DNA of 46,822 bases from a virus (taxonomy: Duplodnaviria > Caudoviricetes), in the IMG/VR virus record IMGVR_UViG_3300032304_000877, positions 1-46,822 of that record; one strand, written 5' to 3'. Below the pieces are notes generated by a model. It searched no databases and was not told the origin of the DNA. It saw nothing but the letters and a program-made list of their open reading frames with translations. This document shows, piece by piece, positions 3,678-22,985 of this stretch; position 1 is the stretch's first letter, and each line of letters opens with the position of its first letter. A program made the translations under genes and the position numbers.

Positions 3678-4235
3678 TTAACGTAGTGGCTTTGTTTTAT
3701 ACGATCCTAATTTTTTTCCAGTCTGCTGAATTGATTTAGTTTCTGCATATTGAGCAATTCGTGGATCTGTTTCTTTGCTTAACCCTTTGTTCCAGGGTGT
3801 GCGGCCCTGCATTGATTTACTCATATTTAAACAATGTTCTTTTGATTTAGGCTTACCTTTAGCGGCTAAAGACATTTTTAATTTGGTATTTTCAGAATGA
3901 GTTTTTCCTAATTGCGCTTTACTTTTCTTTTTTAATGTTTTGGGGCTACATTTGATACCAGAAACTCCTTCGCCACCGTCGGTTTTATTAAGTAGAATTC
4001 CTGTTTTATTATTTTTACGACCATGCCACCTAATTAATTTTCTTTCTAATAGAAAAGCTCCTATTTCAAGCAGATCATCAAAAACTATTATAATTCTATT
4101 GCGATCTTTAGGAGTCCATACTCCTTTATTTTGATATCTATGTTGGACCCATGCTCGTAGGCCTGATCCCTTACCGATGTAGTAAGGTGTGCCATCTTTT
4201 CTTAAGTAGGCATAGACATAATAAGTATTATTCAA
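3678..4235 (-). CDS. free-standing GIY-YIG homing endonuclease with NUMOD3-like DNA-binding repeats
   Basis: YYVYAY...PYYIGKG...R, E..LI and N..DGGEG motifs; [10 protein letters not shown] and [10 protein letters not shown] repeats; TTG start with AAGGAG SD; the only convincing minus-strand gene, and AT-rich. Confidence 0.85.
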
Positions 4236-4306: not shown

Positions 4307-4312
4307 TAAATA
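4307..4312 (+). promoter_or_regulatory. late promoter core TAAATA for the 2082-aa gene (divergent from the endonuclease promoter)
   Basis: TAAATA 5 nt before ATG 4318; no SD. Confidence 0.5.
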
Positions 4313-4317
4313 TATCT

Positions 4318-7300
4318 ATGAATATTGAAGAACTTGACTCGTATAATTTAGCCGACGCTATTAAATTTAATAACCAACTGAACCCAGTTTTATGGGATAA
4401 AACTGAGCATTTAAAGGATACAGTCAGAGAAAAATTATTACAAATTGCTGATGAATTTAGAGAATTTTTAGGCGTTAACGATTTACAATTAACAGATATT
4501 ACATTAAGCGGCAGTAATGCGGCCTACACATACACTCCTAACTCGGATATTGACCTACACCTTGTAGTTAAAATGCCCGACAATGAAGTATATCGCGAGC
4601 TATTCGACGCTAAGAAATATGCGTTTAATGAACAGCACAATATTACAATCGGCGGATACGATGTTGAACTGTATGTGCAAGATGCAGATCAACCACACAT
4701 TAGTCAAGGCATCTACAGCGTATTGAATGATGATTGGGTACAAGTTCCACGTAGACGTCGTGCTGAAGTTGATGATATGTCAACTCGAAACAAATACGAA
4801 AAAGTTGGCCTACAAATAGAACGTGCTATTAAATCGGGCAGTTTAACTCGCATGACCCGTATGGCTGAAAAGATTAAAAAGATGCGACAGACTGGGCTTG
4901 AACAGCACGGCGAATTTGGTCCAGAGAACTTGGCATTTAAGATGCTACGCACACAAGGCAAGATCAAACAGTTGTATGATGCTCGTAATCGGGCCAAAGA
5001 TCAAGAGCTGAGTCTAGATGAGCGTCGCAAGAGCAAGAAAAAGAAACGAGTAAAATACGGGTTTGGTGGTTATTGGTACCCAGGTACCGGATATGCTGGA
5101 CAAGACACTGCGGCCGCACAAGATTCAGGTGGTGGCGATGGCGGTGGTGAAAGTATTAGAGAAGATGTTGCACCTAGTGATGAAGAAATACTAAAAGACT
5201 TTGTCAAATTCTGTGTTGCAGAATTAAAAATTGAATCAATGCCAACTGTCAAGTTGCGTCGTGACCCCCAATGGTCTGTAGTGAACCGAACATTTGGTCG
5301 TTATATCAACGATGCACATCTACTTGAAGTGGCATTTGGTCAACGTCATATCATGGATGTGCTTCGTACTGTGGCACACGAACTTACCCATGCACATCAA
5401 CACGAGCGTGAGACAGTTCCCAATGATGCTGGTGAGACTGGTAGTCCATACGAAAATGAAGCAAATGCTAGAGCCGGTGTGCTTATGCGTGACTATGGTC
5501 GACTGCACCCAGAATTATTTGATGCAGGTCAAGCAGAAAATTTAAAAGAAGAAATTGAAAAAGTCTATGGTATATTGGGCTACCGGGTAGTGGTTAAAGG
5601 TGAATATTTTTATATTTACAAAGGTGATCAACTGATTTATCGCAGTGTAGCTCCTCGGACCTACACTTATGATCAGTTGGTCAACCAAGTCAAACGAGCT
5701 ATATCTGTCACTGGTTCAACTGTTAAGAATCCTGCGGCTATATCCAATCCCAAATCCGGACTAGAAGATGCTTACAAAAAATTAATTCAGATTATAACCT
5801 ATCGAGTTGACAGAAACTTGAATGTGACTCCAGAAACAATTAAAAAAGAAGTAGAAAAAATAGCTGGTGACTATCAAGTCCCAGAAAAAAATCTGCGAGA
5901 GAAATGGGCTCAAACTAAAATTTCTAAATATTCCAACTATCAACGATCAAAGTATACCAGGACTCCAGAACTCTTTGCAGCATTTGAACAAATCACCAAA
6001 TACTTTCAAGACCAGAGTCGTAGTCAATATTATGACAAAAAATTATATAATATAAGAGTGGCTGGTCAAGAAAATCAATGGATCGAAAACAAAATGCAAG
6101 AGTTCATGCAAAAACATGGACTTTCTGTCAGTGAATCAGCATCTGGATATATTCCCACAAAGAAACAAGCTAAAGATCCACGATTCAGCATGGCACTTAC
6201 ACAAGATATCAAGCCAGGACAACTAGGCAAAGAAGCAAACAAACTAAATCTTAAAACCGACAAGCAAGGCATTCCACAGATTGCCAAAACCAATGGCCTA
6301 TTCGAAGAACTGATGCTAGAGTTTCAATTGGCCAAAGAAGGTATCGATGCTCCTATTTCTAAAACCAAAGATCAAGAACAATATTATAAGTTTATCTTGG
6401 CCAAGCACAAAATGGGCAGGCCGCTTACACGCGGTGAACAAGACTATGTGAAAATGTATCAGATGTATCGCCAGCAAAAACTAGCCGAATCTGTGGAAGT
6501 ACTAGACGAAGTCAAGATGAGTCCGTCGGCACTACAAAAGTGGGCTAAAAGTCCTGAAGCGCAGGGCATACGTGCTGGCTTTGAAGCTGAATTAATTTTC
6601 CGTGACACCAACAGTGGTGACGATGACGACAGCGATATGGAGCCTGACTACGACATGGACGAGCGTTGCCGTAGCATTAGTCAAGTTGTAGAATTCTTCC
6701 AAAATGATGACTACGGATATGGACTAAGTGAGCGCCAAGCCGACCGTTTACAAGAAGGTTTAGACGAACAATACATGGAGTGGATGGATGAGCAAATGTA
6801 TAGCTCATGGCGTGATGAGCGTGATGAGTTGATCAAAGAATCTTGGTTGCGTGAAAAACCCATGAGCGAGCGGGTGCATGCCTTTTTGGTTGATGGCATG
6901 GAATTGTCGGATGAGGAAGCGGATCGCATTCAAGCAGTAGGAGACAAAGCACCTAAGTTCAACACCTCCAAAGAACAAGCGGCTTATGCCGAAGAAAATC
7001 CTGATTACGCAACTTATTTAGAAGCCACAGAAGGTGCTGAAGAAATCCTACAAGAAGATGTTGAGCAAACCATTGAGAAAGAAGATGGCTTCTACGACGA
7101 AGTGCTGGATGAATTCCGTGAGAACTTTTATATTGACGACGATTCTAATTTCTTTTCAGATGTTGGATTGCGTTGGATGAGTGACATTTCTAGTGAATAT
7201 GATTTAGGATGGCCTTACTTGACAGGCGGTGCTGGTAATGGCGGAAGCCGTGATTGGGAAAGCATTGGCGATAGTTTAAATGCGGCTATCGACATGCCAG

Positions 7301-10300
7301 TTAAAGTAAGCTCAAATTATCACAGCACTCCACGCAAAGAAGGCACGTGGATCGTAGAACCTGATTCAAGCCTAAGTGCAGATGATCGTGAAGACTTTGG
7401 CTTAGAGATAGTAAGTCCTCCTATGCCCTTAGAACAAGCATTAGAAAAATTACAACAAGTGACCGACTGGGCCAACAATCCTTCAGAAGGCAACTGTTAT
7501 ACCAATCAATCTACTGGTCTTCACATGGGTGTGAGTGTGCCGTTCAAAGGCGGCGATGTTGACTACTTAAAACTGATCTTGTTCTTGGGCGACGAATACG
7601 TATTACAATCGTTTGGACGCGAAGCCAACACTTACACCAAGAGTGCAATGAGCAAGTTCCGTGAAAACATCAAGGGTGGTCGTGCTGATCCAATGGGTGC
7701 AATCAAATTGATGCAACATGGACTACTCGAACTGGCCTACAAGGAAATACAAAAAAGTGTAGGCGAAGGCAAGTATACATCAGCTCACATACAAAAAGGT
7801 TACATTGAATTCCGCAGTGCAGGTGGCGACTGGTTGGCCGAAGAGTCTGCCGACCCTGAAAAACTATCCAGCACCATGTTGCGTTATGCCCGTGCTATGC
7901 AAATTGCAGCCAGCCCTGGTGAAGAACGTAGAGAGTATGCCAAGAAGTTATACAAGTTGGTAGCACCCGAAGGTGATAGTCAATTGGCCTTGTTCAGTCA
8001 GTATGCCGCGGGTGAGCTTACAGCAGAACAACTCAAGAAACGTTGGGCCGAAAAGACCATTGGTACAGAAAAGAAAATGAATCAGCGTTTTAGACTATAT
8101 CAAAACGTAGACGGTCGCTGGGAACCAGTGCCAGGTGCTGAATGGAATGGCTACCCCGAAAGTGAAGTTAAAATGCGAGTATGGGCCAAGTACGGACGCG
8201 AAGCACTAGACTCAGGTGAATATCAACTGGTCAACATGGGCGAGCAGGACTGGGAAGTGTATGATGTTAAAACTGGTGCAACACTTGAAATAGTCAAAGG
8301 CAAGAGCAAAGGTGAAGTGGCTGATGCTGTGTATGACAAGTATGTGGATCAAGGCATTGGCTTCAATGTGCGTCCATACCAAGATCCAGCCACAATGACA
8401 CCACGTGCCAAATTGGCTAAACGTATCGCCCAGACTAAAAAGCCTACAGATTATAACTATGATATCATAGACCGTCGCACTGTGGAACTAAAAGTTGTTG
8501 ACCGATTCTATGCTACTGACGTAAAAGACGCAAGTGAGACCTTTGATCGCTGGTTGAAGATGAAAGGGTTGCCTCAAGATGAGGATGCTTACGGATATCG
8601 CAAAGGTCAGCCTCAACAAGCAGTTAAAGATATTGCTCCTGATGTTGCGCAGAACTTTGCTGGTGATTACAGTGCGTTTGAACGCAACAGTGATCGTATC
8701 GATGCTATCAGAGCCAGACAAGATGCCACAGACATTCCACGCAACTGGGAATTTGTAGATCGCATAACCGGCCAGGTCGTTCATTCAATGGCCAACGCCA
8801 GTTACAATCAGGCCAATGTAGTACAGACTAACCTAGAGCAGAACAACCCAAATGCAGACATATATTTGCGTAGTGTGGAGAGACCCGAACTAGGTGAGGC
8901 CATTGATGCTATTTCTGGTGCAGGAGCTCGTGCGCCTGTTGCGGCTCCTAAATTAAAAACGCAACCACCGGTCAAGCCGATTGATCCAGCTGTGAAACTT
9001 GATGTTAAGAAATCGCAGAGTGATCCTTATGCTCAAACATATAAAAAACCTGTAACTGAAACACTACCGGCTAAGAATCTTAATCAATTATACAGCATTA
9101 AAAAACAATTGGCCAATCCTGCATTAGCCACGGTCGAGCCTGCAGCCTCAGAAAATCCTGTGCCAGCTAAGACAACCCAACCCAGAGTACACGCGGCATT
9201 AACAGATCTGCAACGCCAACGTGACAAGGTGCAACGTCTTATAAATCTTAAACAAGAAATAGAAACCTTAACAGCCCGCGCTGGTCGTACTAGATATGGT
9301 ATCACTCCGGGATTGGCCGCTGATATTGAAGACCTATATCCCGATCCTCAGACTGAAACCGATATGGATGCGGCCATCCAGGGCTACGAAATACAACGTA
9401 AAAAGCTCGCGGATTACATTGCCCGTCAACGCAAGATATTTCCCAAAGAAGATGTAGCAGAAGGTCAACATCAACACACCGAAATTATAAAATGGCCAGT
9501 AGGCGACTGGATAGTATATCTTGATAATCACAGTGTTATACGTGCCATGACCAGAAACATAGGTCCTAGAATGATGAGTAATCTTTTAAATATGGTGTCT
9601 ACAATTCCTAATTTAGAAGATAAAGTGCCAAGGAACGGAGCTTTTTGGATACAGGATATCAAGACCAACAGCAGTTTTTATTTTAGACGCCTAGATATAC
9701 CAAGCGAGCCTCTTGCAGTTCGTTGCGAAACCGGAGTTCAAGATGTTCCTAGAGCTAATAAAAACACTCCAGTATTCCGAGTAAATGCCTACACTGGCCC
9801 AGAGACTCCCAAAGACATACAAGGTATGAAACAAGCCAAACTACGCAGTAAATTTGTTGGAGCCAATGTTATGGCTTCTAACTTGGCTGCTAATATACAA
9901 AAAGGACATCTTGGCAGCGACGATGTTATACGCAATCCAGCAACACAGGATAGTAAAAGATATGATCGTGCATTTAAACAAGCCCAACAAATGGATAAGG
10001 AAGTCGATGAAAACTTTGCCGACGGTAAAGTCAAAGGCAAAAGCCGTCCTGGACGTGTAAAACGTGCAGGTGCCAGTTGTGACGGTTCGGTAACTGATCT
10101 GCGTCGCAAGGCTAAGAATGCATCAGGCGAAAAGGCCAAGATGTATCACTGGTGTGCCAATATGAAATCAGGTAAAAAGAATGAATCCGAAATGGATGAA
10201 GGTTGGAAGCAAAATGTTGCAGCCGGCGTATTGGGTGCTGGAGTGGCCCTGGGTGGCGGCACTGCTCAAGCCGACACTGACGTTTTCCATAAGAAGTTAA

Positions 10301-10566
10301 CTCAAGCTGAAATACAGCAAATTCAAACTAAAGCAGATTTGACTCAACGCTATTATAATGAGTTGGTTCGCCGTGCTAAAGAAGATGGTCGTATTATGGA
10401 TCGCGCCACTCTAAATATGCTCAAGGCAAAAGCAGAAGATGCGGCTGCACGTAGCGTTCAACAACAGCCACAAGCACCACAGGCTAAGTCTACTCTTCCT
10501 GACACGCAACCCAGTGAGATACGCCGTTCAGCAAATTACAAAAATTTTGAATCTGTAAAAAAATGA
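4318..10566 (+). CDS. giant multi-module protein (2082 aa): Pol-beta-like nucleotidyltransferase, HExxH zincin-like domain, putative amidoligase (COOH-NH2 ligase), repeats and cationic modules; candidate internal-head polyprotein
   Basis: GSNAAY...SDIDLH (GS..DxD) near 4510-4560; VAHELTHAHQ near 5377; GFEAEL/GLEIVSPP/TGLHMGVS/IEFRSAGG at 6577-7830; modules joined at LDE, IRE, VSE, LGE, VAE, VDE and MDE. Confidence 0.75.
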   Translation: MNIEELDSYNLADAIKFNNQLNPVLWDKTEHLKDTVREKLLQIADEFREFLGVNDLQLTDITLSGSNAAYTYTPNSDIDLHLVVKMPDNEVYRELFDAKKYAFNEQHNITIGGYDVELYVQDADQPHISQGIYSVLNDDWVQVPRRRRAEVDDMSTRNKYEKVGLQIERAIKSGSLTRMTRMAEKIKKMRQTGLEQHGEFGPENLAFKMLRTQGKIKQLYDARNRAKDQELSLDERRKSKKKKRVKYGFGGYWYPGTGYAGQDTAAAQDSGGGDGGGESIREDVAPSDEEILKDFVKFCVAELKIESMPTVKLRRDPQWSVVNRTFGRYINDAHLLEVAFGQRHIMDVLRTVAHELTHAHQHERETVPNDAGETGSPYENEANARAGVLMRDYGRLHPELFDAGQAENLKEEIEKVYGILGYRVVVKGEYFYIYKGDQLIYRSVAPRTYTYDQLVNQVKRAISVTGSTVKNPAAISNPKSGLEDAYKKLIQIITYRVDRNLNVTPETIKKEVEKIAGDYQVPEKNLREKWAQTKISKYSNYQRSKYTRTPELFAAFEQITKYFQDQSRSQYYDKKLYNIRVAGQENQWIENKMQEFMQKHGLSVSESASGYIPTKKQAKDPRFSMALTQDIKPGQLGKEANKLNLKTDKQGIPQIAKTNGLFEELMLEFQLAKEGIDAPISKTKDQEQYYKFILAKHKMGRPLTRGEQDYVKMYQMYRQQKLAESVEVLDEVKMSPSALQKWAKSPEAQGIRAGFEAELIFRDTNSGDDDDSDMEPDYDMDERCRSISQVVEFFQNDDYGYGLSERQADRLQEGLDEQYMEWMDEQMYSSWRDERDELIKESWLREKPMSERVHAFLVDGMELSDEEADRIQAVGDKAPKFNTSKEQAAYAEENPDYATYLEATEGAEEILQEDVEQTIEKEDGFYDEVLDEFRENFYIDDDSNFFSDVGLRWMSDISSEYDLGWPYLTGGAGNGGSRDWESIGDSLNAAIDMPVKVSSNYHSTPRKEGTWIVEPDSSLSADDREDFGLEIVSPPMPLEQALEKLQQVTDWANNPSEGNCYTNQSTGLHMGVSVPFKGGDVDYLKLILFLGDEYVLQSFGREANTYTKSAMSKFRENIKGGRADPMGAIKLMQHGLLELAYKEIQKSVGEGKYTSAHIQKGYIEFRSAGGDWLAEESADPEKLSSTMLRYARAMQIAASPGEERREYAKKLYKLVAPEGDSQLALFSQYAAGELTAEQLKKRWAEKTIGTEKKMNQRFRLYQNVDGRWEPVPGAEWNGYPESEVKMRVWAKYGREALDSGEYQLVNMGEQDWEVYDVKTGATLEIVKGKSKGEVADAVYDKYVDQGIGFNVRPYQDPATMTPRAKLAKRIAQTKKPTDYNYDIIDRRTVELKVVDRFYATDVKDASETFDRWLKMKGLPQDEDAYGYRKGQPQQAVKDIAPDVAQNFAGDYSAFERNSDRIDAIRARQDATDIPRNWEFVDRITGQVVHSMANASYNQANVVQTNLEQNNPNADIYLRSVERPELGEAIDAISGAGARAPVAAPKLKTQPPVKPIDPAVKLDVKKSQSDPYAQTYKKPVTETLPAKNLNQLYSIKKQLANPALATVEPAASENPVPAKTTQPRVHAALTDLQRQRDKVQRLINLKQEIETLTARAGRTRYGITPGLAADIEDLYPDPQTETDMDAAIQGYEIQRKKLADYIARQRKIFPKEDVAEGQHQHTEIIKWPVGDWIVYLDNHSVIRAMTRNIGPRMMSNLLNMVSTIPNLEDKVPRNGAFWIQDIKTNSSFYFRRLDIPSEPLAVRCETGVQDVPRANKNTPVFRVNAYTGPETPKDIQGMKQAKLRSKFVGANVMASNLAANIQKGHLGSDDVIRNPATQDSKRYDRAFKQAQQMDKEVDENFADGKVKGKSRPGRVKRAGASCDGSVTDLRRKAKNASGEKAKMYHWCANMKSGKKNESEMDEGWKQNVAAGVLGAGVALGGGTAQADTDVFHKKLTQAEIQQIQTKADLTQRYYNELVRRAKEDGRIMDRATLNMLKAKAEDAAARSVQQQPQAPQAKSTLPDTQPSEIRRSANYKNFESVKK

Positions 10567-11279
10567 GAGCTACAGAATTCCTAATTGAACGTTGGAACAA
10601 AAAAACTGTGATGAACTATTTTGATCACAAACAAGATCTTGAATTCAAAAACAGTGACGTCCAAGTCAGCAAGCCATTTGATGGCTGTGTGCTATTACGA
10701 TATCAAAGTGTGCCCGATGTGGCCCGTAGTTTTTTCCGTGTAGCCGAATACTACGACGGCAAACATTATGGCGGACGATCAAGACAAGTTAGTCTAACGG
10801 ATTTTTTAGATAACTGGATGGATCGTGCGGGCCGTGTGGACTATTTTAAATTTTGGGACGGATTTAACATTCCAGATCATGGATTCAAGGCCTGGAAAAA
10901 ATCTGCAGGTGCCTTGTCCGACGCTGAACAGGTCATGGTGGATGCAGTAAACAAGGCTGCCAAAGGTCTGGGTAAATATTGTGTGATTGGTGTAGGAGGC
11001 AATGACTCGGCCACTTTGAGACACGAAATGTTTCATGCCCGGTATTATTTGGACAGTGCATTCAAGAGCCAAGCCGATGCCTTGATACAAGCACACAAAA
11101 ATGATCCTGCATTCAAAGCTATTACGCAAACGCTGATCAAGAAACTGGACTATGTAAATCATGTGGATGAAGAAGTAGCAGCCTACCTTTACACAGGATC
11201 ACAGATGAAATTGGTGTTTGGAACCGAAGCCAAAGAACTAGTAGCACTATTCAAGGAGTTAGACAAAAATGAGATCTGA
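10563..11279 (+). CDS. HExxH zincin-like protein with capsid-targeting-like N-terminus
   Basis: Starts MRATEFLIE; LRHEMFHARY followed by a downstream DEEVAAY glutamate motif. Confidence 0.65.
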   Translation: MRATEFLIERWNKKTVMNYFDHKQDLEFKNSDVQVSKPFDGCVLLRYQSVPDVARSFFRVAEYYDGKHYGGRSRQVSLTDFLDNWMDRAGRVDYFKFWDGFNIPDHGFKAWKKSAGALSDAEQVMVDAVNKAAKGLGKYCVIGVGGNDSATLRHEMFHARYYLDSAFKSQADALIQAHKNDPAFKAITQTLIKKLDYVNHVDEEVAAYLYTGSQMKLVFGTEAKELVALFKELDKNEI

Positions 11280-12552
11280 TGAATTTATTTCAGAAAATTT
11301 AAAGCAGTGGTTCAAAGACAAATGGGTACGCTTTGGACCTGATGGCAAGATCCGTGGAGACTGTGCAAGAGGATCCAAAGGCGAAGGCAAACCCAAATGC
11401 TTGCCACAATCAAAAGCACAGGCCTTGGGCAAAAAAGGTCGTGCCAGCGCTGCGGCCAAAAAGCGTAGAGAAGATCCCAATCCTGAACGTCGTGGCCCTG
11501 CCAAGAATGTAGCTACCAAGGTAAAAGAATCACGCGGTGGAAATTATGATCAAATGGGTTACAGAAAATCTAACACTGATCGATATGCTTTGCTGGATAG
11601 GACTCTGGATGCTGTTATTATGACCGGCAACAACTTGTCCAATCTCAAACAAGAAGCTGTAGAGTGGGCTGAATATGATGACATAGTTACACAAGTCATG
11701 GATCAAACTACAGGCAAGCAGATATTTGCAGTCAACGGATACGAGGAAGCTATGAACTACCTAGATGAAGCCTGCTGGAAAGGCTATCACAAAGAAGGCA
11801 TGAAAACCATGTTTGGCAAACGCTATCCCAACTGTGTCAAAAACAAAAACGAAAGTTTAGAAGTGTATGTTGATCGTGGTGAATGTCCGGGCTGTGGCGG
11901 TGTCATGGTTGCCGAAGACCAAATTGCAGAAAAACAAGATGCCTGCTATCACAAGGTCAAGAGTCGTTACAAGGTCTGGCCCAGTGCTTACGCATCGGGT
12001 GCGCTTGTTCAATGCCGTAAGAAAGGTGCTGCCAACTGGGGCAACAAATCAAAAAACGAAAGTCAGGAGAATATGATGGATGAACTAGATAGAATTTTAG
12101 AACTCAGTACCGGCATGAGTGCTGGTGAGCGAGCAGAATTAGCAGAAGAGTTTGATCTTATTGAGTCAAACATCGATATGCTTGCTGAACGCAATGGGGT
12201 AGATGCAGAAGCAATCTGGGAAGATTTAGAAAGTCTTAGTGATGATGAACTGTATGTGTTTGCGGTCACACAACCTGTGATGGAAGATTGGCAAAAGGCC
12301 AACAAGAAAGACCGTACAGCTGGCATGAGTCAAAAAGCTGTGAATGCTTATCGCAGAGAGAACCCAGGTTCAAAACTAAAAACTGCTGTGACTACCAAGC
12401 CTTCAAAGTTAAAGAAGGGTAGTAAGGCGTCAAAGCGTAGAAAGAGCTACTGTTCACGCAGTCGTGGGCAAATGAAGATGCATAACATTAGCTGTGCCAA
12501 GACTCCAGACAAGGCAATCTGTGCCGCACGCCGTCGTTGGAACTGTGAATGA
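11269..12552 (+). CDS. modular protein made of small basic Cys-containing domains; candidate internal-head polyprotein
   Basis: Starts MRSDEFISE; modules begin after ISE, VKE, LDE, IAE and VME; contains CPGCGG. Confidence 0.7.
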   Translation: MRSDEFISENLKQWFKDKWVRFGPDGKIRGDCARGSKGEGKPKCLPQSKAQALGKKGRASAAAKKRREDPNPERRGPAKNVATKVKESRGGNYDQMGYRKSNTDRYALLDRTLDAVIMTGNNLSNLKQEAVEWAEYDDIVTQVMDQTTGKQIFAVNGYEEAMNYLDEACWKGYHKEGMKTMFGKRYPNCVKNKNESLEVYVDRGECPGCGGVMVAEDQIAEKQDACYHKVKSRYKVWPSAYASGALVQCRKKGAANWGNKSKNESQENMMDELDRILELSTGMSAGERAELAEEFDLIESNIDMLAERNGVDAEAIWEDLESLSDDELYVFAVTQPVMEDWQKANKKDRTAGMSQKAVNAYRRENPGSKLKTAVTTKPSKLKKGSKASKRRKSYCSRSRGQMKMHNISCAKTPDKAICAARRRWNCE

Positions 12553-13274
12553 GATTTAAAGAATTTATTCTCGAAACAGCTGCACTTGATCCTACTCTGG
12601 AACAGCAACAGGAGATGGCCAAATTGTATGCGTTGGGAATATCTCCTGTTGAAATAGGCAAAAAATTTGGAGTGGTTGATCGCACCATATGGAAGTATTT
12701 GTCAAGACTTCCTAATTATCGTCAACTAAGACAACAATTTATGCAAGCTCGGCAGAGTCAAGGGCTCAGTTTTGGATATAAAGGAACTACGCCAGAGCAG
12801 ATTCAGCAAATAATTAAGATGTTTGCCGCTGGTCAAACCATGAATAAAATAGCACAACAGTTCCAATTAACTCCAGCAACTGTTCATGAGCACTTACATA
12901 ACTTATCTAATTTTGCTGAGTTGAAACAACAACATTTACAATCAAGAAAAGACCAAGGATTGCGAGATTATAGTGCAGATAGATCAAGAAAAGGCATCAC
13001 GCCTGAACAAGTGCAACAGATGGCTGGTCTTTGGGCTCAAGGAAACTCGTTAGAACAGGTAGGAGCCCGTTTTGGAATAGGTGTCAGCTCGACTAGACAA
13101 CATCTTAAAAAATTACCTAATTGGACCGATCTATATCAACAAAATCGTGATAACAGACTAAAAAAAACTGGAGGGCGGCAGGTCAATACTAGAAAGATGA
13201 TCAGCAAACCGATGTCACAAGGCAACCAAGCTATACGCACTACAGGTCCGGCCAGTGGTGGGAGATTTGAATGA
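12549..13274 (+). CDS. protein with three tandem helix-turn-helix repeats
   Basis: Starts MRFKEFILE; three roughly 55-60-aa repeats of the type PEQ.QQM..L.A.G.S..EI...FG.....HL..LPN. Confidence 0.75.
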   Translation: MRFKEFILETAALDPTLEQQQEMAKLYALGISPVEIGKKFGVVDRTIWKYLSRLPNYRQLRQQFMQARQSQGLSFGYKGTTPEQIQQIIKMFAAGQTMNKIAQQFQLTPATVHEHLHNLSNFAELKQQHLQSRKDQGLRDYSADRSRKGITPEQVQQMAGLWAQGNSLEQVGARFGIGVSSTRQHLKKLPNWTDLYQQNRDNRLKKTGGRQVNTRKMISKPMSQGNQAIRTTGPASGGRFE

Positions 13275-14692: not shown

Positions 14693-14877
14693 AAGCCAAA
14701 GAAATATACCCAAAATATAAACTCTGGACAGCACCTGTGCGTATACAGCAACCCAACTATGTGGGCTATATAGATGTCACTGTGACAGCGGCCAACATGC
14801 AAGATGCCCGTAGATTGATGCGAGCCCAGTACGGCGTTGAAGACTGGCACATTGGATCTACCAAGGAACTCAAATGA
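14689..14877 (+). CDS. small hypothetical protein (start revised to ATG 14689, MKAKEIYP)
   Basis: ATGA overlaps at both ends. Confidence 0.7.
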   Translation: MKAKEIYPKYKLWTAPVRIQQPNYVGYIDVTVTAANMQDARRLMRAQYGVEDWHIGSTKELK

Positions 14878-15599
14878 GTATTGTAGTATCGGGTGGCAGT
14901 GTCAGCACCGATGGTGATTACACTGTGAGAACTTTTACCAGTTCTGGAACTTTGACAGTTTCTGGTGGCACACTAACAGACGTTCAATATCTACTCATTG
15001 CTGGTGGTAGCCGTGCAGGCGTTCCTATTGGCACCTATGTGGCTGGTGGTGGTGCGGGTGGTGTGCTAACAGGTAATGTTACTATAGCTTCCGGCACATA
15101 TCCGGTAATAGTTGGTGCGGTGAGCAATAACAGCTCATTCCTAAACATGGTGGCCAATGGCGGCGGATATGGTAGTAACTGGGGCAATGGTCAAGCGGGC
15201 GGATCAGGCGGTGGCGGTGGAGTTACCGGCACTGTGCATCGTAATTTCCAAAATTTTGTTGGTGGAAACGGCATACCCGGGCAAGGCTATCCAGGAGGTG
15301 CTCCCGCTGGGGGTGGATATCCACCTTTTGGCCCCGGAGGCGGCGGTGGTGCTGGCGGACCAGGCGGCATAGGTAATATTGACGGAGTGGGCGGGCAAGG
15401 TGGGCTAGGCATAGCCAGCAACATCACAGGCACTACGACCTATTATGCGGCTGGCGGCACAGGTCGCGGGCCCAAAGGCATTGGTAACAACAGCCCAGGA
15501 TACACCAGTTACGGTGCAGGCGGCGGGTACGTCAATACTGGCGGAACATTGTTACCACCACAGCCCGGTGTATTAATTATCAGATACAGTACACCCTAA
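14874..15599 (+). CDS. glycine-rich domain protein (virion/fibre-associated type)
   Basis: TFTSSGT, GGGAGG, YAAGG and GVLIIRY motifs typical of phage glycine-rich domains; locally high GC. Confidence 0.7.
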   Translation: MSIVVSGGSVSTDGDYTVRTFTSSGTLTVSGGTLTDVQYLLIAGGSRAGVPIGTYVAGGGAGGVLTGNVTIASGTYPVIVGAVSNNSSFLNMVANGGGYGSNWGNGQAGGSGGGGGVTGTVHRNFQNFVGGNGIPGQGYPGGAPAGGGYPPFGPGGGGGAGGPGGIGNIDGVGGQGGLGIASNITGTTTYYAAGGTGRGPKGIGNNSPGYTSYGAGGGYVNTGGTLLPPQPGVLIIRYSTP

Positions 15600-15622
15600 A
15601 ACATCAACAAATAATATACCGC

Positions 15623-15628
15623 TAAATA
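15623..15628 (+). promoter_or_regulatory. late promoter core TAAATA
   Basis: 4 nt upstream of ATG 15633; no SD. Confidence 0.45.
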
Positions 15629-15632
15629 CAGT

Positions 15633-15926
15633 ATGACCAAACAGTTCGTACGAGTGTTAGCAGATGTTGATTGCGAGTGGGAAGGATTATCCCCCACGTA
15701 TCGCTTGTATCTTAATGACGAACTATTTGCTGAACGTACCTGGCGCTGGACTGATGCTAGACTTGAAGAAATGATGCAAGTTGAAGCTGAGCCCGGTGAA
15801 TATTGCATTCGTTTTGAATTGGTTCCACCACATTTGGCACAGTTACAAGTGACCAATGTCAGGGTTGATTATGGCCCAGGAACAGTGGAAAATAACGTAT
15901 TAAGGATCCGCAATGAGACTGAGTGA
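15633..15926 (+). CDS. hypothetical protein (97 aa)
   Basis: ORF after a TAAATA core; overlaps the next gene. Confidence 0.7.
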   Translation: MTKQFVRVLADVDCEWEGLSPTYRLYLNDELFAERTWRWTDARLEEMMQVEAEPGEYCIRFELVPPHLAQLQVTNVRVDYGPGTVENNVLRIRNETE

Positions 15927-16119
15927 ATTTGTTGAGTTAAAAGAAGATGGCGGTGCCAGTAGTGGTACTACTACGAGTGGTAGTATAGCGCCTGTAGCTA
16001 TGCCCTTAGGCGGCATGATCGCAAGAAATGCAGGATCTTTCTTTGCTGGTAAATACACTACGGACGATGCAACGCCTAACACGCCTGCAGAGTACAAAAA
16101 ATATAAACGGAAGAAATAA
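15913..16119 (+). CDS. small protein with capsid-targeting-like N-terminus
   Basis: MRLSEFVELKE followed by DGGASSGTTTSGSIA; basic C-terminus. Confidence 0.7.
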   Translation: MRLSEFVELKEDGGASSGTTTSGSIAPVAMPLGGMIARNAGSFFAGKYTTDDATPNTPAEYKKYKRKK

Positions 16120-16559
16120 TGTTAGCTGATTTGTTAAAAACTTACCTTGCAAGTACATTTGCCTATTACCTAAAAGCCCACTATTTTCATTGGAATGTAG
16201 AAGGCCCAGATTTTGGTGAATTGCACAAGTTTTTATCTAAGATCTACCAAGATGCCTTTGATGCCATAGATCCTATTGCTGAATATATCCGTACTACTGA
16301 AGAATATGCCCCAGGAAGTTTTGAACGCTTCCAAGAACTAAGCCAAATACAAGGACAAACCAAAGTTCCTCGTGCCCGTTTAATGTTACAAGAATTACTC
16401 GCAGATACACAAACCATGATTGACATGAGCAAGCAAGTATTTGATGTTGCTGCCGCAGAAGGTCGTGAAGACATTGCAAATTTTGCCGCAGAACGTCAAA
16501 GTCAGCACGGCAAATATTCATGGCAATTAAAGAGTTATTTGAAAGACGCAAGGGCATGA
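16119..16559 (+). CDS. dps: Dps / ferritin-like DNA protection protein
   Basis: KAHYFHWNVEGPDFGELHKFL...D.IAEYIR and HGKYSWQL Dps signatures. Confidence 0.9.
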   Translation: MLADLLKTYLASTFAYYLKAHYFHWNVEGPDFGELHKFLSKIYQDAFDAIDPIAEYIRTTEEYAPGSFERFQELSQIQGQTKVPRARLMLQELLADTQTMIDMSKQVFDVAAAEGREDIANFAAERQSQHGKYSWQLKSYLKDARA

Positions 16560-16562
16560 TTA

Positions 16563-17228
16563 ATGGCGCACGACCATAACGACATTTATAGTATAGTTGA
16601 ACGACTGCGAATTCTTGAAGAAGGACTTGACAAGAACCAACGCAGTGTCAATCAACTTTCAGCCACTTTTAAGCCCAAGACAGTAGCAGTGCTCACGGCC
16701 AAAACTGATCCTAAGAATCCCTTGGCAGGTAAACTGGTTGGTGGTTCAGAAAGCGTAGAACATGATGAAACTGCTGTGGCCGAAGATGTGCTAGACAAAG
16801 TCAAAAAGTCATTTGCTGATTATCTAAGTAACATAGCAGATGAAATCAAACAAGACACTGATCTCAAAGACAAAACAACTGGAGACTCAGATATCAAAGA
16901 AAAAAACAAGCAAGATAGAGATCTTGTTTCCAAAAAAAATGAAGACACTGAAATTGGCGCAGCTCTAAGTGGCGTTATTCCTGCAGAGCAACCTGCCGGT
17001 GAAGAAGGTGTTAGCATGAAAGAAACAGCCGCAGTCAAAACTGTCGCAAACAAATCAGGCCTATGGGAAGTACACGGTGATGATGTAGCTGGATTTGAAA
17101 TACGACATGGCAACCGTGCCATGAAATCAAAATTTAAAACTATAGACGAAGCTGAAATGGCTTTGGAGATATTCAACCGTCGTCAACTTCGTCGTGACGA
17201 AGCAGCGGATTACATTGACGAAGCTTAA
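16563..17228 (+). CDS. acidic modular hypothetical protein, candidate internal-head protein
   Basis: Junctions ILEE|G, VAE|D, MKE|T; ends in DYIDEA. Confidence 0.65.
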   Translation: MAHDHNDIYSIVERLRILEEGLDKNQRSVNQLSATFKPKTVAVLTAKTDPKNPLAGKLVGGSESVEHDETAVAEDVLDKVKKSFADYLSNIADEIKQDTDLKDKTTGDSDIKEKNKQDRDLVSKKNEDTEIGAALSGVIPAEQPAGEEGVSMKETAAVKTVANKSGLWEVHGDDVAGFEIRHGNRAMKSKFKTIDEAEMALEIFNRRQLRRDEAADYIDEA

Positions 17229-17238
17229 GGAAAAATAA

Positions 17239-20200
17239 ATGTTTGCATTAGACCTATTTAACAACGACCACGAACGCCGACTTGCAGAAGGCGCGGTAGA
17301 TCAATTAGAGCAACGTAGAATTGACGACTTGGCCATGAAGATGGACGACCTAGTGGCTCGTGCAAAAAACCCAGCATACAAAAAGAATCCTGCGGCATTG
17401 GCTGCATTGATGAAAGAATTTCAAAAGTGCAAGGCCGAGCGTGACAGTTACTACAAGATACGAAACGAGACCATGGGCTATGGCAGTCTAGGCGAAACCG
17501 ATGACGTTCCAGTTGGTCGTATGCAACCGGGTACTCCAGAGTATGCCGCGGCTCGTAATCGTTCTGTAAAATATGCAGGTCTTCCAGATGTTGCTGATAA
17601 AGCCAACAAGATGGCTCGACTGAATCAACCTGGCAAAGTGGGCTCAGATGCAGTGTCCCCGCAACAACGTGTAAACCCCAACCCCGATAAAGGTATCATC
17701 GGTCATGCTGTGGATTGGTTACGTGGCAAGGGTGGCCCTGGCAAAGAAGGACCCACATATGAAGATTTAGATGAAGGTGCCGAAGATAGTAAAATTAGCA
17801 TAGCAAGATATGTATATGCACAAATCATGAATGCGTTGGAAAATAATCTTCAGTTTGCCACCATACAATGGCCACAAGGCAACATGCAAGGTCCCAAGCA
17901 AGATGCCACACTGAGTCGCAATCAGATGCATTTTTTGATCCAACGCTTGGTCAGTATGAGTCGCGAACAACGCAAACAGTTTACACATCAAGTCTTGACA
18001 GATCGTGTGGCAACCCTACAATGGTTGACCAACAAAAAGATAAAACCAGCTCCTACTCCGCCACAACCAATGGTAGATCCAACTCAAGGCAGTTTGCCGT
18101 TAGGCAAGCCGGTGGGCGAAGCTCGCGGTCAAAAAAAAAATTCTGACAAAGTAGACAGTCCTACAGCACAAAACGCTGAAGTTCAAAATAGATTAAGAAA
18201 ACTTCGCGCAGAATATCCCAGTGCCACCAACGATGTTGAAGCATTGGTACAGGATGAAATGGCCACTCAAGCACGAGTAGATCAAATTTTAAGTCAACAA
18301 CAGGCAGAAATTCAACAACAGGGCTCTGCTGTTGCACAGTTAAATCAAGCTAACCAACAACAAGATTCAAAGATAACAAGTTTACAACAACAGTTGGCCA
18401 CAGCACAGCGTGATTTACAACAACCTGCAACAAAACCCACAGTTGCAACACCCACTACTACAACGACTCAACCTGCACCAGTGGCAGATAAATCTACAAG
18501 CGTATCGGGACCCATTTATATTCCAGAACCAGTCACGGCCAAAGATCAAGAAATTTACGACAAGGTTCGGGACCTTGAAACCGAACTCAAAGGCAAAATT
18601 GATGCCATGGCCAGCTGGAATGCAGTTGCACAAAAAGACCCTCAAGCCAACAACGAACTTGAAGCACTACGCAAAGAAGTTGAACGCACTAGAACTGAAA
18701 TACAACGTCAGGTCAAAAAACTTACCAAACAAGTTAAAAAACACACAAAGTCATTACCCGCAACTGACCAAGCACCAACTAAAAACATGGGTGCAGTGCG
18801 TCGAGTGGCGTCTACTCCACAGTTGGGTCAAACTCCAACTGACGCAGGTGAACTTGGACGACAAATTGGCCAACGTGCCCAGGCCAACAAACAAGCAAAA
18901 TATGGCAAAAAGCCAACTGCGCCAACAACAACTGATTTAGATTTTCTTGATACTGACCAGGCAAATCAATATTTGAGTCGTTTTGCTAAAAACAAGCAGA
19001 ACGCAACAACTGTTGAGCCACGTCAAACTGAATTACAAATTGAGGAAGGCACAGCCGAACAGTTTGGTCAGGCCGTTCGTCAAGCTGATCTGACTGGACG
19101 AGAACTTGAACGTGATCCAGAATGGCGCAGACTGCAACAACAAAAAACACAACGAGAAAAAAACCTACTACGCAGTCAAGCCGGCTACGGCAATGATGCA
19201 GATGAATTTGGAGATATCACTGACATGAACGAAACAGTTAAAAAATTACAACAAGGCGATCCTATCACAGTCACAGCACCCAACGAGTTTGAAGGAGCCA
19301 CTGGTGAAATTTATGATTTTAGTCCCAGCAGAACATTTGTCATTGTGGACTTGTACAATCACGGCAAACACAGCATGCATCTGAGTGATGTTGAATACAA
19401 CCAATATGCCGCAGATCAGGACGATGATGAAGATGACTGGTATGATGATGAAGAATTAGACGAAGGAGCCATGAGTGAACTGGATATTGAGCGTCAAGAT
19501 CTTGATCGCATGACAGATCAGCAGTTCCTCAAGGCCTATGGTATCAGCAAAGAGTTTTGGAAGTACAAAAATCAAGCTCTGCTTAAAAAACCACGCCGGC
19601 GCCCAATGAGTGCTCAGCTGGCCCGCAGTGCGGTAGGACAAAAAATGAATACCATGTATGGATCAAATTGTCCCGGTTGCGGTCGTTCTGTCAATCCAGA
19701 TCGTTGCATATGTGAGAGCGTGGTCAATCCACAGTCTATTATTGCTCAAGTAACAAAAATTTTAGCAGGCGAAGCACGACGTTTTACCAATGCTCCAATG
19801 GCACAACTACTTGCTCCTATCATGAAACAATACAGTCTTACACTACCGCAAATTGACGGTATGATTCCAGGTGGCCTTAAACGAGCCGCTGGCGAATATG
19901 GTATTATGATGAAAGAAGGCTGGAGCGATGCGATTGTTTCTAAAAGATTAGGCACTCCACGCACACCTTATTCAGTTTATATCAAGGGCAAAAAGTGGAA
20001 AGACTTTGAAAATGACGATCACGCAGAAGCTGTAGCAAACAAATTACGAGCCAAATTCAAAGCCGAAGGACGTGATCCTAGTGTTATTACCATTGCTCCC
20101 ACTGATATGTCAGAAGCCACCGGCGATGACAAGTTTGATGCCATGATGGACAAAATAAGCAAAGATCCTTGGACACAGTTGAATTCAGATCCCAACTGGG

Positions 20201-22353
20201 AATACGAAATAGAAGAACTGGTTGATCAGCACATTGAACCATGGTTATTGGCCATGGAAAAAAGTGGCATGCTAATTACCCGGGACAACGAGACCTTGAA
20301 TCCCGGCTGGAGAAAACGTTACGAGCAGATATCGACTCAGCTGGCCCAGAAGTATCTGGCTTCTAAAAAATTCAATCCCAGAGATCCTGACCTGGTTGGC
20401 AAAATCCGTGTTGCCATAGATAATCATACTGACCAAAGCAGAAACGTACACGGACAGCTAAGTGCCTACGCAGACGATCTGCCCCTGCATCGCTATGCAG
20501 ACGCATTTGACGCAGACGGAATGACTGCCAATATACGCGATGCCATGGCAGGATTGGCACCACGTGATGATGACGATGACAGTTATGCATCACGCCCTGC
20601 AGCCAATCCACGTAAGCTGGATCCAGGCAATATGGAAGAAGCCAAAGCAGACCCTACTGGTAGTTGGATAGTGTACGGTGGCAACAAGGTAATGAAGTTT
20701 AAAACACACGCCGGTGCTAAGGCATACGCTGAGAAGAACGGTGGCAAGGTTGCTAGTAGCGAGTTCTATGCTGATCGGATTCAGAAGTCGAGTGTAGGCG
20801 AAGCTATTGTTGCTAGTGGACCAAGCAAACCACTAGACGATCGTGCTGTCAGAAAAATGGTTTGGGACACAATGAAGATCAATGCTGACACAGGCGAACA
20901 AGCCTTACAACGTGCTCTTGCTGTGTTGTCCAAAAAGCCACAAAGTCGTATGGTTCAGGATCTACAAGACAAGTTCCAAAGCCTAGCTGATCGTTTAGCA
21001 CAAGGTGTGTCAGAAGGTGCAATGAGTAACCTGCATGCTGATTTGGCTGATGTTTACAATCGCATGGCTCCTGGAATTCAACGCAACAGAGACAGTTTCA
21101 AAGCCAGCCAACTATACGACGCACTGGAAGCTGTTGCAGAACAACACGGCGCCGAAGCAGAATTCAACCGCATGATGAATGGTGCTAGAAATCGTGCTCA
21201 CATGGATTACGACACCAACCCAGGTGGTTTCCAAAACTGGTTCTGGTACTTGCCATTTGAGGACGAAGGTGTGGCTGAAGGATTGAAGTCAACTCTAGCC
21301 GGTGCTGCACTTGCTGGAGCAATGGCCTTAGGCGGCGCTGGCGCGGCACAAGCACAATCAGCATCCAGCGGCCCAAACCTAGCCAATCCCACAACAATTA
21401 TACAACAGATTCAGTCTGGCAAAATTCAAAATCAAAATGATTTGGCATCAGCTCTGGGCAATGCCAGTAATAAACAAGCGGTTTTTAAGATTCTTCAAAA
21501 CAAGGCTGGTCTGCCGGGACACGGCGCAGACAGTGTTATCAATGCTCTTGGCAAGAAAAGTGCCGCTGGTGCACAACAGCCAGCCGCTGGAGCACAACCT
21601 ACAGTAAAATCCGCAGGGCAATCTGGATCAATTATTCAAAGGCCCACAGACAACTTTGAAGGTAGAATAAAAGAAGAGTTTGACATGCCCGGAACAACTA
21701 TACCACTGAAAAGCGTGATACAAGGCTTCACTGTATTTTACAATCCTAAGACACGTGAAATCAGTATCACCCGTGGCGGTGACAGTGCAGAGGCTGCTAT
21801 AGAGCAAATACGTATCAAACAACCAACCATGTTGGCATTTAAATCTGCTGTGGAACGCTTAATCAACAAGATTGAAGATGATCAAGGTATAACAGAAGCT
21901 GAAAAAGAACCTACCACACGCCAAGAACTGTTGAACCGTGTGGACAAGATACAACGCATGATGACACAGGAACGCAATCCAGCCAATCTACAGATCCTGC
22001 GTAAAGAACTTGAAATGCTCAAGCAACGTTATCAGCATCTCAGAGAAGATAATGACAGCGAAGCTGTTGAACGTGCTATTCTTAATCGTATCATGGTTGC
22101 ACATACCGACTTGTTGATGAAGTTTGGACCAGACAAAGTTATGCAGGCCGCCGAAGAAGTTGCTTACAATGTAGGCGATGTGGACGAAATTGGCACCAGT
22201 GATGTCAGTGCTTATGTTCATCAAGTAAAACAAATACTTGGCGTTCCAGAAGAAGTCAAAGAAAAATGGTCACAAAAATACAAAAGCAGTATCAACTGTG
22301 CCAATCCAAAAGGTTTCTCACAAAAAGCTCATTGTGCCAGTAAGAAAAAATGA
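17239..22353 (+). CDS. giant multi-module protein (1704 aa) with coiled coil and many short modules; candidate internal-head polyprotein
   Basis: SD AAGGA; about 17 hydrophobic-x-E|G/A/S/T/D/K junctions (LAE|G, LDE|G, VGE|A, IEE|G, MKE|G, MSE|A, VSE|G, VAE|G, ITE|A, LRE|D, VKE|K). Confidence 0.75.
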   Translation: MFALDLFNNDHERRLAEGAVDQLEQRRIDDLAMKMDDLVARAKNPAYKKNPAALAALMKEFQKCKAERDSYYKIRNETMGYGSLGETDDVPVGRMQPGTPEYAAARNRSVKYAGLPDVADKANKMARLNQPGKVGSDAVSPQQRVNPNPDKGIIGHAVDWLRGKGGPGKEGPTYEDLDEGAEDSKISIARYVYAQIMNALENNLQFATIQWPQGNMQGPKQDATLSRNQMHFLIQRLVSMSREQRKQFTHQVLTDRVATLQWLTNKKIKPAPTPPQPMVDPTQGSLPLGKPVGEARGQKKNSDKVDSPTAQNAEVQNRLRKLRAEYPSATNDVEALVQDEMATQARVDQILSQQQAEIQQQGSAVAQLNQANQQQDSKITSLQQQLATAQRDLQQPATKPTVATPTTTTTQPAPVADKSTSVSGPIYIPEPVTAKDQEIYDKVRDLETELKGKIDAMASWNAVAQKDPQANNELEALRKEVERTRTEIQRQVKKLTKQVKKHTKSLPATDQAPTKNMGAVRRVASTPQLGQTPTDAGELGRQIGQRAQANKQAKYGKKPTAPTTTDLDFLDTDQANQYLSRFAKNKQNATTVEPRQTELQIEEGTAEQFGQAVRQADLTGRELERDPEWRRLQQQKTQREKNLLRSQAGYGNDADEFGDITDMNETVKKLQQGDPITVTAPNEFEGATGEIYDFSPSRTFVIVDLYNHGKHSMHLSDVEYNQYAADQDDDEDDWYDDEELDEGAMSELDIERQDLDRMTDQQFLKAYGISKEFWKYKNQALLKKPRRRPMSAQLARSAVGQKMNTMYGSNCPGCGRSVNPDRCICESVVNPQSIIAQVTKILAGEARRFTNAPMAQLLAPIMKQYSLTLPQIDGMIPGGLKRAAGEYGIMMKEGWSDAIVSKRLGTPRTPYSVYIKGKKWKDFENDDHAEAVANKLRAKFKAEGRDPSVITIAPTDMSEATGDDKFDAMMDKISKDPWTQLNSDPNWEYEIEELVDQHIEPWLLAMEKSGMLITRDNETLNPGWRKRYEQISTQLAQKYLASKKFNPRDPDLVGKIRVAIDNHTDQSRNVHGQLSAYADDLPLHRYADAFDADGMTANIRDAMAGLAPRDDDDDSYASRPAANPRKLDPGNMEEAKADPTGSWIVYGGNKVMKFKTHAGAKAYAEKNGGKVASSEFYADRIQKSSVGEAIVASGPSKPLDDRAVRKMVWDTMKINADTGEQALQRALAVLSKKPQSRMVQDLQDKFQSLADRLAQGVSEGAMSNLHADLADVYNRMAPGIQRNRDSFKASQLYDALEAVAEQHGAEAEFNRMMNGARNRAHMDYDTNPGGFQNWFWYLPFEDEGVAEGLKSTLAGAALAGAMALGGAGAAQAQSASSGPNLANPTTIIQQIQSGKIQNQNDLASALGNASNKQAVFKILQNKAGLPGHGADSVINALGKKSAAGAQQPAAGAQPTVKSAGQSGSIIQRPTDNFEGRIKEEFDMPGTTIPLKSVIQGFTVFYNPKTREISITRGGDSAEAAIEQIRIKQPTMLAFKSAVERLINKIEDDQGITEAEKEPTTRQELLNRVDKIQRMMTQERNPANLQILRKELEMLKQRYQHLREDNDSEAVERAILNRIMVAHTDLLMKFGPDKVMQAAEEVAYNVGDVDEIGTSDVSAYVHQVKQILGVPEEVKEKWSQKYKSSINCANPKGFSQKAHCASKKK

Positions 22354-22985
22354 AGATCAGCGATTTTGAAATCACCAATCATGACAAACTAGATCAAATC
22401 TTAGTGCGTCTTTGCGAGATGGTTGTGGAAGGACAATACAAAAAGAAACTGAATCTTGGTGTGGTTGCAGCCGCGGTGCTAGATCCCAACAACAACTGTG
22501 TGGTGGGTATCAACTATCCCACAAAAGACGGACGACGTGTTCACGGTGAACGAGCAGCCATTGACAGCTACGAGGCCCGTTTTGGAGCCATTCCAACAGG
22601 TAGCATCATCATTACAACCTGTAGCCCTTGCACACAACCCATGGACGAACGGTCCGGCATCAACTGTAGTGATCTCATTGATGAAGTTGGTGTACACAAG
22701 GTGTACGCCGGTTACAAGGATCCCACACAGGATTTTGGTAACAAGCGTTATCATATTGAAATCACACGCAATCCTAAAATTCAAGCATTATGTAAGGCCT
22801 TTGCTGACACATTTTTAAAAGATGAACTCAACGAACTTGAGTTCTTGGGATCACCATGCACCCGAGACTGTTCGGGACATCGTGCGGGCTATGCCTGGAG
22901 TCAAAGCAAAGGCGGGCGTGTGGCACAAAGCCCGTTTAGTCCCAGCTTCAATAATGGCAGCCAGCTTCATGTAGACGGTAAGTAA
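22350..22985 (+). CDS. zinc-dependent cytidine/nucleotide deaminase-fold protein with extra C-terminal module
   Basis: HGERAAI and TCSPC...C deaminase motifs; starts MKISDF; second module after LNE (PCTRDCSGHRAGY). Confidence 0.8.
   Translation: MKISDFEITNHDKLDQILVRLCEMVVEGQYKKKLNLGVVAAAVLDPNNNCVVGINYPTKDGRRVHGERAAIDSYEARFGAIPTGSIIITTCSPCTQPMDERSGINCSDLIDEVGVHKVYAGYKDPTQDFGNKRYHIEITRNPKIQALCKAFADTFLKDELNELEFLGSPCTRDCSGHRAGYAWSQSKGGRVAQSPFSPSFNNGSQLHVDGK

Follow-up and report, generated by a model that had tools for sequence, protein, structure and literature searches.

Organization of the island

The DNA analyzed here (the window) is the whole 46,822-nt record IMGVR_UViG_3300032304_000877 (46.8 kb of virus). 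Positions 4318–22985 are a variable late-gene island, the long proteins of which appear to be strings of modules joined at hydrophobic-x-Glu motifs. An earlier note, made from the letters alone, had proposed that these proteins are polyproteins packaged in the capsid and cut after Glu by a prohead protease. The window is a piece of an RaK2/Phosso-like jumbo myophage genome, and its family B polymerase is most similar to the polymerases of Sinorhizobium phage Phosso (50%) and of jumbo myophages of the RaK2 type (43–44%). The island is flanked by a cytidylyltransferase-like gene (1889) and the polymerase block, and related IMG/VR contigs, some of 317–347 kb, have the same island with changing content. 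The 214-aa downstream gene was dropped as an anchor for relatives: of the 80 loci that it marks, many come from phages of other groups that lack the island, and only L001–L022 were kept. Long pieces of one public sequencing run, possibly the run from which the record derives, match the stretch with 0–1 differing letters. A chimeric assembly is therefore improbable where they match, although none of them covers the full stretch.

The island features described in this section, like the linker copies described further below, are on the + strand. A TAAATA motif (4307–4312), which we take to resemble the T4 late promoter, is located at the head of the island. In the relatives, TAAATA is found within 60 nt upstream of 29 of the 34 homologous island-head genes versus 111 of the 554 control genes, and often precedes portal and core genes too. 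The first gene encodes the predicted 2082-aa polyprotein (4318–10566), delineated by Pfam, homolog breakpoints, and a structure model. It begins with a short leader to E5, followed by a Pol-beta nucleotidyltransferase, an HExxH zincin, a unique module, small modules, and a C-terminal part made of an amidoligase-like domain, a basic Cys module, and a Sec-like module. The nucleotidyltransferase module ends at E235 (4318–5022; Pfam, homology, and model) and is homologous to ORF156 of cyanophage S-CREM2. The zincin metallopeptidase module with an IrrE/SprT-like fold lies between E282 and E411 (residues 283–411; 5164–5550; Pfam, breakpoints, and fold). The amidoligase-like module starts from E731 and its end is approximate (6511–8067; Pfam PF12224 and coverage). 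The small basic Cys module from E1898 (10012–10200) has starts in 23 loci and is a stand-alone leader gene in one relative. The last module (10201–10566) has a Sec-type signal-peptide-like start directly after E1961, as judged by a rule-based scan.

The next genes are shorter. A 238-aa single module (10563–11279) has HExxH near residue 155 and a capsid-targeting-type leader to E9, both read from the sequence. It is followed by a 427-aa chain of small basic modules (DUF5872 and DUF6321; Pfam and homology) behind a leader (11269–12552), a 241-aa triple helix-turn-helix protein with a leader to E9 (12549–13274; Pfam and sequence), and a 473-aa chain with two GNAT acetyltransferase modules and joints at E83, E191, and E281 (13271–14692; Pfam and breakpoints). 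Two small genes encode 62 aa (14689–14877), with a full leader in relatives, and 68 aa (15913–16119), with a leader of its own.

The 221-aa acidic protein (16563–17228) has hydrophobic-x-E sites, and the earlier note had counted it among the module strings. Contrary to that assignment, 35–38 loci cover it end to end and it is unshuffled; it is possibly a prohead-core component. The proteins encoded at 1889–2686 and 16563–17228 end in or near DYIDE, and relatives of the latter end in DYLEE or DYVEE; such endings are possibly a C-terminal tag or a cut site.

The predicted 1704-aa polyprotein (17239–22353) consists of up to approximately 19 modules, mostly of 50–150 aa, delimited by breakpoints, and no Pfam or PHROG match was found for them. 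One of its modules (21280–21675) has a Sec-type signal-peptide-like start directly after E1347 (rule-based scan). The last gene (22350–22985; Pfam and breakpoints) encodes a 211-aa zinc deaminase with a small C-terminal module after E162, which rides on other proteins in other phages.

Joints at hydrophobic-x-Glu

The six open reading frames (ORFs) read earlier as module strings, as well as all 24 Glu sites quoted for them, are present in the sequence. The expected motif enrichment proved to be modest. The six proteins contain 41 [LIVM]xE[GASTD] motifs versus 24.5 ± 4.7 in shuffled sequences (z 3.5), and the 30 other proteins in the window contain 43 versus 33.3 (z 1.8). Across the relatives, the enrichment is 1.34-fold in island proteins and 1.12-fold in controls. 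Bulk motif counts were rejected as proof, because they are weak and partly seen in controls.

The positions at which homology breaks off are clearer. When 348 dereplicated island proteins were compared by BLAST, the internal breakpoints coincided with [LIVMF]xE for 246 of 490 starts (null, 97.5 ± 8.3) and 303 of 573 ends (null, 137.3), indicating that the modules change at Glu sites as the earlier note described. The offset peak on the motif is sharp, whereas those of the D, Q, and K controls are flat; in control proteins, 5 of 31 and 24 of 90 breakpoints are on the motif versus 5.3 and 18.5 expected. The test was repeated with fixed windows on a held-out set of query loci, from which 276 proteins were searched against a pool of the earlier and the added proteins. 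The starts on the motif were 244/465 versus 91.7, and the ends 225/396 versus 94.1; the starts were still 227/431 versus 83.5 after breaks within collinear homology were dropped. As sites are not independent, they were also collapsed to homologous junction families, giving 52/122 versus 28.9 ± 4.1, with a maximum of 41 in 300 shifts.

A homolog breakpoint is found at 20 of the 24 quoted sites, the exceptions being E282 and E1581 in the 2082-aa protein and E17 and E603 in the 1704-aa protein. The residue following Glu had been described as mostly small. G (17%), S (12%), and A (11%) are indeed the commonest of the residues counted, yet D, N, and E account for 8% each. The median module length between joints is 86 aa (433 modules). 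Among 15 of 35 joints in co-occurring strains, there are joints 2–3 nt from E167 and E221 of the 427-aa protein and E893 of the 1704-aa protein, and several that are not at motif sites; in these strains, a leader replaces a linker as the entry to the modules of the 427-aa gene. Together with the breakpoint map of the window, these joints bear out the proposal that cassettes are gained and lost at the sites.

In an AlphaFold model of residues 1–750 of the 2082-aa chain, of which residues 412–750 had no alignment support, the domains are separate (predicted template modeling score, 0.35). E5, E282, E411, and E606 are in stretches with a predicted local distance difference test (pLDDT) value below 50, and E235 is at a helix end beside one such stretch. 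Motif copies within the nucleotidyltransferase and the zincin fall in confident regions. Searches against solved structures gave nothing significant by sequence or fold, the best fold E value being 7.9e-3 (nucleotidyltransferases and IrrE).

Capsid-targeting-type leaders

The N-terminal leaders of the 238-, 427-, 241-, and 68-aa genes had been overlooked in the first reading. The leader pattern M[RK]xx[ED][FILV][ILVT]xE occurs in 57 of 339 island genes versus 0 of 472 controls (held out, 23/263 versus 0/82). Two complete genomes were also examined in four stretches, either flanking the island or in the head region, and 0 of 97 ORFs there have the pattern. In the window, the 238-, 427-, and 241-aa genes have the strict pattern, and the 2082-, 1704-, and 68-aa genes have shorter or longer leaders. 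The T4 capsid targeting sequence is MKTYQEFIAE, according to the part of bioRxiv 2021.01.19.427310 covered, and by analogy the leader of the island genes is likely to be a capsid-targeting signal. Phosso, the nearest cultured phage by polymerase, has one leader-type gene, gp216, at the syntenic place (L403, 39136–39849) and no chains; gp216 is a possible test of the leader in the RaK2/Phosso clade. The stretch of Atu_ph07 examined for the island was not informative.

When proteins without their leaders were used as queries, 98 internal copies aligned from mature residue 1–2. Glu precedes 82 of them, and hydrophobic-x-Glu precedes 77, against a background of 2% per residue. By family, the count is 14 of 19. 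A module thus starts at one fixed residue, whether it stands alone or in a chain.

Buried segments resembling export signals

Of 3154 internal motif sites, 34 are followed by a signal-like segment, a frequency of 10.8 per 1000 in which neighboring sites are partly double-counted. The frequencies are 0.7–2.5 per 1000 for D, Q, K, and N sites, 5.0 for other xE sites, and 1.0 for control proteins; the polyprotein of locus L099, misbinned among the controls, was removed from this count. In a six-frame scan of all loci, all 20 Sec-like copies are placed 5–7 residues behind the motif, and all 7 lipobox copies are 10 residues behind it, 6 of 13 lipobox pattern matches having been left out as off-frame or unrelated. 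Among the 6 twin-arginine (Tat) copies, four are 2 residues or fewer behind the motif, one is at 9, and one is truncated; TIGR01409 scored over its cut-off in 3/3 copies tested. No signal copy is at a gene start among all the loci scanned (0/20 Sec-like and 0/7 lipobox). Sec, lipoprotein, and Tat signals act at N-termini. The payloads behind the signals include GH19 and M48 domains. The window has two Sec-like segments, those after E1961 in the 2082-aa protein and E1347 in the 1704-aa protein.

Protease and virion proteins of relatives

The gp21-like protease, for which the earlier note proposed to look elsewhere in the genome, is present in related genomes, and this phage is predicted from them to have one. 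PF03420, the gp21-family protease, was detected in 10 of 42 related records searched (4/5, 2/32, and 4/5). The 32 records are fragments of 5–72% completeness and most misses are short fragments; the single near-complete record without PF03420 is also without a capsid gene. The catalytic His and Ser motifs are kept in 10/10 of these proteases. The capsid protein of the relatives has L-x-E at residue 42 in 10/10, the middle residue being variable (two spurious rows of 12 matches were left out), and their scaffolds have 239 motif sites versus 117.5 expected. According to the portions of PMC9026906 and PMC12991175 covered, L/I-X-E is the motif after which T4 gp21 cleaves; the enzyme breaks core proteins into fragments, whereas internal proteins are trimmed.

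The modules of the 427-aa protein match 375 phage records, mostly cyanophages, in which they occur in altered order. In S-CREM2, ORF154 is a cytidylyltransferase with a leader, ORF156 is a leader plus the homologous nucleotidyltransferase, and ORF160 has the same small modules with the motif before each. The virion table of S-CREM2 gives 3, 6, and 7 peptides for ORF154, ORF156, and ORF160, respectively (PMC10665884, seen in part); the presence of homologous cassettes in a published virion proteome agrees with the earlier note. In S-SCSM1 gp029, the order of the modules differs, and the annotation reads "virion protein." Mass spectrometry identified 45 virion proteins of S-SCSM1 (PMC9602691), and gp029 is not named in the text or supplement covered.

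Fixed-spelling linker DNA

The linker QGVAEG is mostly encoded as CAAGGTGTGGCGGAAGG, with GCG in 30 of 41 island copies versus a background of 7–10%. The fixed linker is held by an estimated 1100 IMG/VR stretches. It is in frame in 156 of 157 distinct copies, the flanks of which are unrelated, and 58 of 131 matches to the 64-fold degenerate pattern are the one fixed spelling. The flanking bases show a bias at synonymous sites (G 68% before and C 81% after; L151–L230), often forming a 4-bp inverted pair around the linker. Within five long genomes, most copies lie in clusters, and most joints, including nearly all in the window, do not use the fixed linker. The only repeats found within the window are two copies with 2 mismatches each, identified by sequence match at joints E1259 (21001–21017) and E1347 (21265–21281) of the 1704-aa protein. 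Chains with the fixed linker also occur ahead of the nucleotidyltransferase gene or at a distance of 30 kb (L099, 6095–9028; G042, 213195–245982), showing that the island bounds vary. The tyrosine recombinase PF00589 was detected in 0 of 5 near-complete genomes and in 14/14 controls, the search being confined to this recombinase family. The fixed linker is likely to be a homogenized exchange joint for homologous recombination.

Interpretation and alternatives

We consider that the modules are joined at hydrophobic-x-Glu, loaded by a T4-type leader, cut by a gp21-family protease into approximately 40 proteins, and ejected with the DNA, with a probability of about 0.7; the earlier polyprotein proposal as a whole is held with similar confidence. 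The island chains would be made late and loaded into the prohead via the leader. The phage's own protease would then cut at most joints while sparing folded domains, and the separate proteins would be released and later ejected. The enzyme cargo would comprise the nucleotidyltransferase, zincin, amidoligase-like protein, GNATs, and deaminase, and the helix-turn-helix protein and small basic peptides probably bind DNA or host defense proteins. Some modules would gain a Sec, lipoprotein, or Tat signal as their new N-terminus and go to the host envelope. Cargo would be gained and lost via in-frame recombination at joints, partly aided by the fixed-spelling linker. For the proteins of the window, packaging, cutting at most joints, and delivery are inferred.

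Several observations weigh against this interpretation. No cut or neo-N-terminus is on record for the window or in the literature covered, and head genes, including the prohead protease, are absent from the window contig. Seventy of the 122 junction families, and about half of the breakpoints, are off the motif, and held-out starts are also mildly over-represented at non-hydrophobic xE (251 versus 209.5). The six proteins have 94 [LIVM]xE sites, many within domains, so it must be folding that makes the cuts specific. The motif count in the scaffolds may be raised by coiled coil, and there is no bulk enrichment in the acidic core protein (98 versus 88.6) or capsid protein (53 versus 47.4). The Sec-like segments are one homologous family and rule-scored, with no NCBIfam model over its cut-off. 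The cyanophage authors allow for carry-over through CsCl (PMC10665884 and PMC9602691, both in the parts covered), and Syn9 gp114 lacks a structural annotation. In the portion of PMC10052503 covered, 13 of 14 cuts in SPN3US remove N-terminal propeptides.

The chains might be cut and yet not injected, the pieces being prohead-core filler that leaves the head or acting in the producing cell at a late stage, for example as envelope modules whose timing is set by head maturation. T4 gp22, gp67, and gp68 are cut to fragments that mostly leave the head (PMC9026906, in part), gp21 is able to cleave a cytoplasmic substrate (PMC12991175, in part), and a GH19 lysozyme-like payload behind a Sec-like signal in one relative would suit lysis. 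However, the leaders match those of T4 internal proteins, which remain in the head according to the part of bioRxiv 2021.01.19.427310 covered. The homologous modules are in mature virions of S-CREM2, and enzymes keeping their active-site motifs are implausible as filler, making this explanation unlikely. Slightly less likely still, leader genes have fused and left the joints behind as relics, and the chains remain whole or lose the leader only, like polyvalent proteins. Modules do switch between stand-alone and fused forms, phage N4 packages its virion RNA polymerase without cutting it (PMC5512222, in part), and T4 internal proteins are cut only once in the account covered (bioRxiv 2021.01.19.427310), the last point also counting against multiple cutting here. 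Contrarily, the internal joints retain P3 and P1 and not the rest of the leader (P5–P4 are Q/E/D and G/D/E), the module order is free, and the N-terminal-type signals buried in the chains are never at a gene start.

The zincin at residues 283–411 of the 2082-aa chain could itself be the cutting enzyme instead of the prohead protease, as self-processing by a metallopeptidase was proposed for polyvalent proteins (PMC5512222, in part). The joint motif is, however, the gp21 motif, kept in the capsid protein of the relatives. The zincin module is covered in 26 loci versus 36 for the nucleotidyltransferase, and no zincin module is found in the S-CREM2 genes around the cassette; we regard this explanation as very improbable. 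The least credible explanation is that translation starts internally at the joints. V, L, M, and I at P3 are encodable by start codons, and the fixed linker has GTG in 29 of 41 copies, while the P3 codon use at other joints equals background. Internal starts were rejected, since Shine-Dalgarno-like words precede 30% of gene starts but 8% of 730 joints, compared with 7% at other sites. As the export signals act at N-termini, proteolysis is left as the simplest source of the new end.

Comparison with known systems

T4 IPI, IPII, IPIII, and Alt share with the island a leader of approximately nine residues ending in I-x-E and the L/I-x-E cut motif (PMC9026906, PMC3012670, and bioRxiv 2021.01.19.427310, each in part), as well as the gp21-family protease, found in the clade, and variable, often small basic cargo. 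In the parts of these sources covered, each is a small individual protein that receives one cut, or, for Alt, a cut at either end. In the island, by contrast, one leader heads chains of up to approximately 19 modules and 2082 aa with internal sites, the cargo includes enzymes and signal-like segments, and P3 is also V and M. With its many internal motif joints, the island is a variant of the T4-type internal proteins, not a plain member.

The ejection proteins of phiKZ, 201phi2-1, and SPN3US include many head proteins cut after Glu, sometimes multiply (PMC10052503, PMC7411985, and PMC9026906, all in part). Their motif is A/S-x-E, the extra cuts shred propeptides and free no functional modules, and no cassette shuffling is described in the passages covered. 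Polyvalent proteins are likewise large multi-domain delivered proteins with GNAT, zincin, and nucleotidyltransferase domains, and the chains here have the 2–15 diverse conflict-type domains that define them. The passages of PMC5512222 covered propose their own metallopeptidase for processing, and describe neither a T4-type leader nor a cutting grammar. Pfam searches found none of the marker domains MuF, ArdC-N, LPD, and PBECR in the window chains, and ART-PolyVal gave a sub-cut-off match in 1 of 30 proteins of the relatives' chains.

In the PeSL cassettes of the T4-type phages RB49 and phi1, short repeated DNA also drives modular shuffling; PeSLs are intergenic promoter-terminator units, whereas the island linker repeat lies within the reading frame and codes for the predicted cut site (PMC2839356, in part). 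Integron-like arrays would be expected to have a dedicated tyrosine recombinase, for which the PF00589 search reported above gave no match in the near-complete genomes. The passages of PMC7824862, PMC9503650, and PMC3012670 covered describe no such polyprotein system. Our literature searches, whose coverage stopped short of subscription journals and bioRxiv supplements, found no polyprotein processed by a prohead protease, in keeping with the earlier note, to which no description of this processing grammar was known.

We extend the interpretation only tentatively, at somewhat below even odds, to T4-type jumbo phages and cyanophages as a system in which one leader loads polyprotein cargo, the protease releases dozens of effectors and unmasks Sec, lipoprotein, and Tat addresses that direct part of the cargo to the envelope of the newly infected cell, and the linker doubles as an integrase-free exchange joint through which cargo is swapped in the manner of integron cassettes. 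Polyprotein processing is known mainly from RNA viruses and, if the interpretation is correct, would extend to tailed phages. Hundreds of "hypothetical" proteins of lake and sea phages could then be read by rule as lists of mature virion cargo, offering a predicted pool of anti-defense and host-takeover factors of the first minute. Export signals unmasked by cutting would open a new path by which capsid contents reach the periplasm, and multi-cargo loading for T4 capsid delivery is suggested. The system is testable now, as homologous chains are available in cyanophages already in culture, namely S-CREM2, S-SCSM1, and Syn9.

Neighboring genes

Just 5′ of the island, a NUMOD3-containing gene on the − strand (3678–4235) is probably a homing-endonuclease-like antisense insertion. 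Three genes within the island differ from their neighbors. The glycine-rich fiber-like gene (14874–15599) and the conserved 97-aa gene (15633–15926) are without leader or joints, and a Dps/ferritin gene without a leader (16119–16559) is fixed within the cargo island of many relatives. The replication and modification block (24205–46822) contains PolB, a methyltransferase-like gene, two radical SAM genes, and a glycosyltransferase gene, which suggests DNA or envelope modification. In this block, an 839-aa protein (38655–41174) has an N-terminal lipoprotein-like signal (LSAC) and a sigma70-like promoter upstream.

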